The notes: generated from the sequence alone by a model not told the origin. Positions 5,402 through 12,714 are shown, counted from the first letter of the whole stretch. The stretch is 60,283 nucleotides of DNA, filler included, from Circinaria calcarea (GCA_051942165.1; 11 parts of 11 records of this genome joined end to end with filler, not necessarily neighbours in it); one strand, 5' to 3'. Numbers and translations are program-made.

Positions 5402-5501
5402 NNNNNNNNNNNNNNNNNNNNNNNNNNNNNNNNNNNNNNNNNNNNTTAATTAATTAANNNNNNNNNNNNNNNNNNNNNNNNNNNNNNNNNNNNNNNNNNN
5501 N
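5402..5501. other. Artificial contig linker (N44-TTAATTAATTAA-N44)
   Basis: 100-bp spacer with stop codons in all six frames. Confidence 0.98.
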
Positions 5502-10899: not shown

Positions 10900-10999
10900 N
10901 NNNNNNNNNNNNNNNNNNNNNNNNNNNNNNNNNNNNNNNNNNNTTAATTAATTAANNNNNNNNNNNNNNNNNNNNNNNNNNNNNNNNNNNNNNNNNNNN
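10900..10999. other. Artificial contig linker
   Basis: N44-TTAATTAATTAA-N44. Confidence 0.98.
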
Positions 11000-11233
11000 G
11001 GTGGTCTTCAGTGCGTCGATTCGGACTGATACATCCTGCTGGCTAAAACTTTCAGCATTGGCGGCTAATTGAGTATTCGTCGGGGTTTCAGGGCCCTTGG
11101 GACTGCGTATCAGGGTTGTAAAATTCTTTGTGATTTTGGCAAAGCCGGTTTCTGGAGCGTTGAATCGCTCTATCAACTTTAGTTCAATTGATGTCGATGT
11201 GACGTTTCGGATTGTCAATGGTGGAGACTCCAT
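11000..11233 (-). CDS. Probable phosphatidylinositol-specific phospholipase C (fungal PI-PLC X type), N-terminal fragment
   Basis: N-terminus PLTIRNVTSTSIELKLIERF resembles that of fungal 1-phosphatidylinositol phosphodiesterases (recalled similarity). Truncated at the linker. Confidence 0.55.
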
Positions 11234-11634
11234 TGTAGCTAATACTTTGTTGTACTAGTTAGTAGAAGAAGGGAAGAGATTAAGACGAAATTGCCTGAAA
11301 GTGCTCCAACAATAGAAATGTGGACTGGATGAGATCTTGGGTGGGGGAGGGGCTCATTACATATTCTTTAGCTTCAAGCCACCCGTGGTCGATTGATACC
11401 TCAGGTACTCTAATAGACAATCAATTAAAAATTCTCATAGACTATTTAATTTTAAGCAAGCATGTATATTGGTCATATAGAGTATCATAAGCATAAACCA
11501 TTTGTAGTAATAAAGACGATTAGTTCTACCTGGCTGTAAACGACTGAATCAGCATGAAGGACAGAGCAGATTTTGAGCTTGTGCACTGTTGATTGAGTTT
11601 ATAATGTATAATAAGAACTATGTTTTCAAGAAAA

Positions 11635-11768
11635 AGCATTTTGGCGCAGCGGAAGCGCGCCGGGTAAGCATTTCCGTTCAAAGTTAGCTACTTTCTATCG
11701 GCTAACTCTTAATTAAAGGCTCATAACACGTGACCCGGAAGGCCGAGGATCGAAACCTCGAAATGCTA
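11635..11768 (+). tRNA. Initiator tRNA-Met (CAT) with two introns: spliceosomal-type 11664-11718 and canonical 11726-11732
   Basis: Acceptor stem AGCATTT/AAATGCT (A1-U72), D-arm GCGC-AGCGGAA-GCGC, anticodon stem CCGG|G/CCCGG, loop CTCATA|A, T-arm CGAGG-ATCGAAA-CCTCG (A54/A60), discriminator A73. All eukaryotic initiator hallmarks are present. Confidence 0.92.
11664..11718 (+). other. Putative U2-type spliceosomal intron within the tRNA anticodon stem (position 30/31)
   Basis: 5' GTAAGC, branch GCTAAC (11701-11706), 3' AAG 13 nt after the branch A. Length 55 nt, like the mRNA introns in this window. Precise removal restores the anticodon stem. Confidence 0.8.
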
Positions 11769-11773
11769 TTTTT
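11769..11773 (+). terminator. RNA polymerase III terminator (T5)
   Basis: TTTTT immediately after the tRNA discriminator base, with a second T-run a few bases later. Confidence 0.8.
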
Positions 11774-12345
11774 AGATTTTTTGGCTTGCTAGAGGCTTTT
11801 TTTTTTGGTTCCTATTGCCAAATTTTCTCTCTGGCTCTTTTTTCCTTTATTTTGTGGTAGAAATTTCTTACTTTTGAGTTGGATATTGTGTTTTGGTGGA
11901 GGATGTGGATCGGGTGATTATGACACCGAAGCTACGCGATTTGAGTCGGCCCAGAGAATCTTCGGGCAGTACTACAGTATTAAGCAAAACAATCCCTAGC
12001 GTGGTTTCTTCAAACCCCCAGGAATCTCAATCACAACCATATGAAAATTATGGCAAAGCAGGGGGGCTATAATAAGCGCATGATCCGGAGTACACCTACG
12101 TTTTCTCTGAGAATATAAAGCGTGGTTTGGGTGTGCTGTACGGGCTGTCAAAATTTCGGGCTAGGATTCATTTTGCCCGACACCGTAGTAAATCTAACTC
12201 CACGAAGTACCATTGTAGTATTTATAAATCTTCCCAAATCCCAATCAATCCAACGCCTGCCTCCCCCACTGTAAATTAACCCACCCCCGACCTGCAACGC
12301 CTCATTTGAAAATTGCTTCCCAACAATCCTCCCATCTTTACAAAA

Positions 12346-12714
12346 ATGGCCCAACGCGAAGCCTACAGCGCCCCCTCCCCCTCCCAGAACCCTCTCGGCG
12401 CAACTTCCACCTACACGTCCTCTGCCTACGCCTCGATCGACCAAGTCGGGCCCCTGACGCAGTACATTTGCGGGGAGTGCAGCAGTAAGGTACAACTGAA
12501 GAAGGGGGATCCGCTGCGGTGCAAGGAGTGCGGGCATCGGGTGTTGTATAAGGAGAGGACGAAGAGGTAAGTTTGATTTTTCTGAGGGGGAAGAGGGAGG
12601 GAGGATGGAGGTATTTTTCTTGGAGTGGGGGAGGGAATGGAGGAGATATAGGCGGTGAGGGTGTTGGCTAATGTATGCGGGGTGTATAGGATGGTGCAGT
12701 TTGAAGCGCGATAA
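12346..12714 (+). CDS. RPB12: RNA polymerase I/II/III shared subunit RPABC4; exons 12346-12566 and 12690-12714
   Basis: YICGEC...[25 protein letters not shown] zinc ribbon. Intron GTAAGT, GCTAAT, TAG. Confidence 0.95.

Follow-up and report, generated by a model that had tools for sequence, protein, structure and literature searches.

Introns of the spliceosomal kind and introns of tRNA genes are treated as unrelated classes in the available part of a 2025 paper (PMC12530127), which places the former in transcripts of RNA polymerase II (Pol II). Among fungi, the U6 snRNA genes of Schizosaccharomyces pombe and other species contain mRNA-type introns (Tani and Ohshima 1989, 1991, cited in PMC5855946), whose origin is thought to lie in reverse splicing into an abundant RNA (PMC5855946), and some fungi also have spliceosomal introns in their rRNA genes and in the genes for U1, U2 and U5 snRNA (Takahashi et al. 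1993, 1996; Bhattacharya et al. 2000, cited in PMC5855946). The introns described for tRNA genes include canonical ones, which span a length range of 6–133 nt, and non-canonical ones, known from archaea, Cyanidioschyzon merolae and nucleomorphs, for which a bulge-helix-bulge motif is required (PMC4090602).

The locus described here can be set beside each of these systems. The window, by which we mean the whole stretch of DNA that was analysed (60,283 nucleotides, filler included, from Circinaria calcarea, GCA_051942165.1), contains the body of an initiator tRNA-Met gene, as the first-pass annotation had described, in which 72 nt of tRNA are divided by two inserts into pieces of 29, 7 and 36 nt (Table 1). 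As in the U6 genes, a short insert of GT-AG type with a branch motif is found inside a small, conserved non-coding RNA gene of RNA polymerase III (Pol III) layout. The two cases differ in that the host here is a tRNA and not a component of the spliceosome, in that splicing is here read from sequence signals, and in that a tRNA-type intron lies 7 nt downstream, which would bring two unrelated splicing systems to one precursor of 134 nt. The fungal U1, U2, U5 and rRNA introns offer a similar parallel, being mRNA-type introns in non-coding genes, of which the rRNA genes are not transcribed by Pol II, whereas the list of hosts in the available part of PMC5855946 is without tRNA. The non-canonical bulge-helix-bulge introns are alike in occupying unusual sites (30/31 is among the archaeal ones) and in occurring together with a 37/38 intron in one gene (PMC4090602), but the motif cannot form at this locus, where spliceosomal signals are present instead and the host is an ascomycete. 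Canonical 37/38 introns resemble the small insert in its site, in a length within their range and in a free sequence of kept length, and this comparison covers the small insert alone. The novelty that had been claimed for tRNA genes agrees with the full-text literature, in which no description of a tRNA gene with a spliceosomal intron was found, subscription journals lying largely outside its coverage.

Table 1. Coordinates of the split initiator tRNA-Met gene, its signals and the related features discussed in the text.
Feature	Coordinates	Strand	Content or basis
Initiator tRNA-Met body, complete once inserts are removed	11635-11768	+	Sequence reading
Exon 1	11635-11663	+	tRNA positions 1-30, 29 nt, position 17 absent; acceptor 5' strand, D arm, first four anticodon-stem bases
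Insert of GT-AG mRNA type	11664-11718	+	55 nt, between tRNA positions 30 and 31
Micro-exon	11719-11725	+	7 nt, positions 31-37 (G31 + CTCATA); anticodon CAT at 11722-24
Insert of tRNA type	11726-11732	+	7 nt, canonical 37/38 site; ARAGORN i(37,7) after removal of the long insert
Exon 3	11733-11768	+	tRNA positions 38-73; anticodon-stem 3' strand, variable loop, T arm with A54/A60, acceptor 3' strand, A73
Acceptor stem	11635-11641 with 11761-11767	+	A1:T72 included; pairs checked base by base
D stem	11644-47 with 11655-58	+	Pairs checked base by base
Anticodon stem	CCGG 11660-63 and G11719 with 11734-38	+	Pairs checked base by base
T stem	11744-48 with 11756-60	+	Pairs checked base by base
A box	11642-11652	+	Sequence reading
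B box	11747-11757	+	Sequence reading
Pol III-type terminator	11769-11782	+	T5 at 11769-73 directly after A73, T6 at 11777-82
TATA-like A/T stretch, putative upstream promoter element	11600-11614	+	About 21-35 nt upstream of position 1
RPB12 gene (RNA polymerase subunit), one intron	12346-12713	+	Pfam PF03604, E 1.5e-18
Truncated initiator-tRNA-like copy	L002:1729-1840	+	A+T-rich 3,123-bp metagenome contig

Eukaryotic initiator tRNAs are marked by an A1:U72 pair, by three G:C pairs at 29-31:39-41 and by adenines at positions 54 and 60. All of these features are present on direct reading of the body, with A1:T72 in the acceptor stem, three G:C pairs closing an anticodon loop that reads CTCATAA, with CAT at 11722-24, and a T loop, ATCGAAA, that supplies A54 and A60. 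A paired initiator body with A1-U72, A54/A60, internal boxes and a T5 terminator had been noted earlier, and every one of its coordinates matches on re-reading. The acceptor stem contains four A:T pairs in a row, at positions 4-7 with 66-69 (11638-11641 with 11761-11764). Position 64, the site of ribosyl-phosphate modification in fungi and plants, at which a purine is expected, is a C here (11759, in the T-stem 3' strand CCTCG). Beside the initiator tRNA of budding yeast, a C at this position is unusual. Both the A:T-rich acceptor stem and C64 are identical in a related soil-metagenome contig that is described below.

The signals for transcription follow the layout of a type-2 Pol III gene, with internal A and B boxes separated by a gap of 94 nt, a T-run terminator and a longest internal T run of 3. 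The first-pass annotation had stated that the long intron is free of T4 runs; its longest is indeed T3, so Pol III could read through it. These short T runs are weak evidence that agrees with passage of Pol III through the insert.

Automatic tools overlook the gene in its intact form, as had been predicted of standard tRNA finders. ARAGORN with default settings reported no tRNA in the entire window, and Rfam at its gathering score gave no match for the intact gene; when the Rfam threshold was relaxed to E<=10 over 11550-11850, there was still no tRNA match, and a single chance match to a snoRNA (E 8.4) was returned. The inserts were then sliced out of the window and ARAGORN was run on four versions of the sequence, each with default settings and with introns allowed. 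The intact version gave nothing by default and a tRNA-Thr(cgt) with a 62-nt intron, i(32,62), when introns were allowed, a call also made with introns allowed on the whole window. With the short insert alone deleted, the default run was again empty, and allowing introns produced tRNA-Met(cat) with i(31,55). Deletion of the long insert sufficed for a default call of tRNA-Met(cat), accompanied by i(37,7) when introns were allowed, and deletion of both gave a clean 72-base tRNA-Met(cat) by default and tRNA-Met(cat) with introns allowed. The excision of 11664-11718 that had been put forward as a check accordingly turns a gene missed by both ARAGORN and Rfam into a tRNA-Met(CAT) with initiator features. 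The Thr(cgt) mis-call of the intact 11635-11768 is an artefact that automatic annotation could spread.

The long insert interrupts the 5' strand of the anticodon stem, and its deletion rebuilds the stem with all five pairs, both in the ARAGORN output and in base-by-base pairing, which bears out the claim that GT..AG excision restores it. The boundary can be slid by one base in either direction, giving three equivalent registers, of which one alone has GT..AG. The donor, branch and acceptor signals attributed to the insert were found where they had been placed. The donor is GTAAGC (11664-69), which fits the GTRAGY pattern of a 5' splice site in U2-type introns, the branch motif is GCTAAC (11701-06), whose A11705 lies 13 nt from the insert end and fits a rule of CTRAY at 8–35 nt, and the acceptor is AAG (11716-18) and not YAG, the commoner of the two. 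How readily such a combination occurs was assessed on the N-free 55-mers of the window, both strands included. A strict definition (GTRAGY at the start, CTRAY with its A 8–35 nt from the end, AG at the end) is passed by 1 of 117,376, presumably the insert itself, the test having printed the count alone, and a loose definition by 22 of the same number. It is very unlikely that the splice signals arose by chance. A looser scan of the whole window for GT..CTRAC..AG was set aside as uninformative, with 33 sites against a mean of 42.5 in shuffled sequence.

Beyond chance matches of 9–13 nt, no further copy of the 55-nt insert was found in the window, so nothing there suggests a repeated element. 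In the predicted fold, an 8-bp hairpin inside the insert (11683-11706) pairs GTTAGC with its reverse complement, the branch motif GCTAAC; in the related contig, one of the hairpin pairs is lost and another has become G:U, and neither change is compensated. Sites of the IRE1/HAC1 type were dropped on inspection by eye, the junctions being unlike the loop consensus.

The insert had also been likened to the mRNA introns of the window, and both length and signals agree with the RPB12 intron and with six candidate introns. The RPB12 gene, on the strand of the tRNA and about 580 nt downstream of it, has an intron of 123 nt (12567-12689) with the signals GTAAGT..GCTAAT..TAG, the removal of which continues the frame to a stop and restores the C-terminus. 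The six candidates, of 50–119 nt, were obtained by the joining of open frames with 80 or more codons, and the gene models are heuristic rather than annotated. A version of the same procedure accepting any AG acceptor was noisy (30 candidates, 11 of them passable) and was not used for acceptor statistics. T5 is present in three of the seven mRNA introns compared, against a maximum of T3 in the 55-nt insert. Of the two neighbours named by the first-pass annotation, RPB12 is upheld by its Pfam match and PI-PLC is not confirmed, the open-frame fragment examined for it (11003-11233, minus strand) having no Pfam match and being partly masked. A neighbouring anthranilate phosphoribosyltransferase has ascomycete proteins in its nearest clusters, and it is on this ground that the host is taken to be an ascomycete. 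Runs of 44 N stand in pairs separated by 12 bases, at intervals of about 5.5 kb (5402-5501, 10900-10999 and onward), and make up 20 runs with 880 N altogether; they have the look of deliberate masking rather than of assembly gaps, and one pair interrupts the gene upstream of the tRNA.

At the 37/38 site, nuclear tRNA introns are excised by the SEN endonuclease, after which tRNA ligase joins the halves. The claim of a second, 7-nt intron at this site is confirmed by ARAGORN, as listed in Table 1, with a register that is ambiguous by one base (ACACGTG or CACGTGA). We know of no intron in the initiator tRNA genes of model yeasts. In the related contig, four of the seven bases differ and the length is kept, and a length of 7 nt falls inside the canonical range quoted above (PMC4090602). 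G11730, which lies 3 nt before the 3' cut and could form the anticodon-intron pair of such introns with C32, is also kept in the relative. In the predicted fold, by contrast with the bulged 3' splice site of this intron type, the anticodon is paired with GTG and the 3' cut of this insert falls within a helix. The insert also contains an E-box-like palindrome, CACGTG (11727-11732), which is probably coincidental, since the related contig, where four of the seven insert bases differ, has lost it.

Comparative evidence comes from one contig of 239 nt, at a depth of 3.4, from a soil metagenome (run X1, share 0.07), which aligns to 11624-11786 and has the same two-insert layout, with insert lengths that match those of the window within 1–2 nt. 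Relative to the window it carries 17 substitutions and 3 indels, and every one of these falls within the inserts. The long insert takes 13 of the substitutions and the 3 indels, at 11671-11713, and the short insert takes the other 4, at 11727, 11729, 11731 and 11732. Substitutions thus affect none of the 72 exon bases and 17 of the 62 insert bases (Fisher p = 5e-7). Within the inserts, the donor (11664-70, GTAAGCA), the acceptor (11714-18, TTAAAG), the TAAC of the branch motif and G11730 are unchanged, as is the anticodon CAT in the micro-exon; two changes, 11700 G>T and 11702 C>T, convert the branch motif from CTAAC to TTAAC. The T runs of the terminator are unchanged as far as the alignment extends (11786), after which the contig continues for 72 nt unlike the window, so that it represents another locus or another organism, assembled separately. 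The contig was recruited by shared exact 31-mers, a sampling biased toward conserved stretches, and a local alignment stops where matches stop, so the identical flanks of 11 and 18 nt mean little. The conservation check that had been suggested for relatives thus comes out with splice signals kept in an otherwise diverged insert and all 72 exon bases identical. Such exon-only conservation is the pattern expected under selection on exons and splice sites, for which it argues, and the confinement of all 20 changes to the 62 insert bases argues against a pseudogene that is drifting neutrally. The presence of the same layout in an independent contig argues against an assembly error.

Metagenome contigs were also scanned with a pattern consisting of a D arm followed by GGGT, which yielded eight loci, one of them relevant. 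This locus (L002) has an intact initiator-like 5' half, with an acceptor strand that differs from that of the window gene, and at the identical 30/31 site carries an insert of 54 nt with GTTAGT, TTAAC and AAG, followed by GCTCATA. An internal deletion then reaches into the T loop and is followed by T8, and the 3' half is absent from the 3,123-bp contig by motif search, BLAST and Rfam at E<=10. The copy looks dead and is best counted as a truncated relic; it shows that a second lineage or paralogue has an insert at this site, and no more. As it looks dead, intron-bearing copies can be relics. Of the other seven loci, six (L001, L003, L004, L005, L007 and L008) were dropped as GC-rich sequences without tRNA shape, and one (L006) as an unrelated, uninterrupted tRNA. 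A scan of bacterial and archaeal genome contigs, in which an insert of 35–65 nt was required, gave six chance matches (L009-L014), all in bacterial bins, and scans of viral contigs gave none.

Taken with the related contig, the sequence of the locus supports the spliceosome reading offered by the first-pass annotation, and we consider it fairly probable that this is a working, selected initiator tRNA-Met gene whose product depends first on the spliceosome and afterwards on the tRNA endonuclease. Maturation would begin with transcription by Pol III, from the A and B boxes up to the T5 (11635-11773). The nuclear spliceosome would next remove the 55-nt insert by way of GTAAGC, the branch at A11705 and the AG, and the tRNA splicing endonuclease would cut out the 7-nt insert, after which tRNA ligase would join the halves. 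The spliceosome is placed first because the anticodon stem is complete only once the 55 nt have been removed, and also because the tRNA endonuclease of budding yeast sits on the mitochondrial surface and acts after nuclear export (PMC4090602), a location that may differ in this fungus. A functional tRNA would thus be the inferred product of the split gene. Several features count against the spliceosome reading, namely the branch motif weakened in the relative (CTAAC to TTAAC), an acceptor of AAG rather than YAG, the enclosure of the branch motif in the predicted 8-bp hairpin and the normal coupling of spliceosomal splicing to Pol II. The four consecutive A:T pairs of the acceptor stem count against a working gene, and the main reading is also weakened by the thought that the cell may draw its initiator tRNA from uninterrupted genes and that this copy might be a minor one.

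An unlikely alternative retains a real and selected gene and has the 55-nt insert removed without the spliceosome, either by the tRNA endonuclease acting at a non-canonical site or by another endonuclease and a ligase. The machinery would be close at hand, for the gene already relies on the endonuclease for its 7-nt intron and Pol III transcripts encounter that enzyme anyway, and non-canonical tRNA introns, some of them in the anticodon stem, are excised in a few eukaryotes (PMC4090602). The eukaryotic cases reported in the available part of that source are, however, algal and not fungal, and no bulge-helix-bulge motif can be drawn for the insert in any of the three registers: of the 4 pairs of the central helix, 1, 3 and 2 can form, and of the 3 pairs of the outer helix, 1, 0 and 0. 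The predicted fold is likewise free of the motif. The insert differs from the endonuclease type in both site (30/31, not 37/38) and structure (no bulge-helix-bulge). Removal by such a route would also leave unexplained why GTAAGC, CTAAC and AG stand at the correct spacing, a combination passed by 1 of the 117,376 55-mers, and why donor and acceptor are conserved in the relative.

It is similarly improbable that the gene is a dead or dying copy, disabled by an intron-like insertion, with uninterrupted genes supplying the tRNA. The rejection of the intact gene by tRNA finders, its weak, A:T-rich acceptor stem and the existence of L002, a truncated copy whose insert is of this kind, would all suit a relic of this sort. 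Neutral drift should, however, alter exons too, and the relative shows 0 changes in 72 exon bases against 17 in 62 insert bases and 3 indels; stems, anticodon, A and B boxes and terminator are all intact, and splice signals as complete as these are very unlikely to be there by chance.

We give comparably little credence to a third alternative, under which the insert is spliceosomal and is removed from a Pol II precursor, either a non-coding RNA that hosts the tRNA or a neighbouring gene extended upstream, from which RNase P and RNase Z then release the tRNA. The spliceosome normally acts on Pol II transcripts (PMC12530127), a TATA-like stretch is found at about -21 to -35, and RPB12 lies on the same strand about 580 nt away, downstream of the tRNA. 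Against this, intact A and B boxes and a T5 directly after A73 form a standard Pol III layout, the insert is free of T runs longer than 3, and the splicing of a Pol III transcript has a precedent in U6 (PMC5855946). Last, that the insert is an assembly error, or that the locus encodes tRNA-Thr(CGT) interrupted by one intron of 62 nt, the call made by ARAGORN for the intact sequence with introns allowed, is hardly credible, given an independent contig from another data set with the identical two-insert layout, a body that bears initiator features, and a Thr reading that would put A at position 33 and the intron between 32 and 33 and of whose CGT two of the three bases (11729, 11731) are altered in the relative, in which CAT (11722-24) is kept.

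If the reading of a spliceosome-dependent initiator tRNA-Met gene is true, a tRNA requiring the spliceosome would cross the textbook divide between spliceosomal introns and tRNA introns, and tRNA would join the non-coding RNAs with mRNA-type introns, that is, U6, U1, U2, U5 and rRNA. It would be a second natural case of spliceosomal splicing in a Pol III-type gene. Standard tRNA finders would then undercount the tRNA genes of fungi, both of those used here having missed this one. The finding also bears on the birth of new spliceosomal introns, one possible route being reverse splicing into RNAs that are abundant.

A stronger claim, that the spliceosome is obligatory for the initiator tRNA in this fungus and its relatives, of which this is possibly the only or main gene, is one that we advance as a tentative possibility. 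Under it, no initiator tRNA could form until an mRNA-type intron had been spliced from a Pol III transcript and the SEN endonuclease had then taken out a tRNA-type intron. Were it true, the 30/31 site shared with the truncated metagenome copy would mean an old, inherited intron and no recent accident, and the supply of initiator tRNA, and hence the capacity for translation initiation, would depend on splicing capacity.
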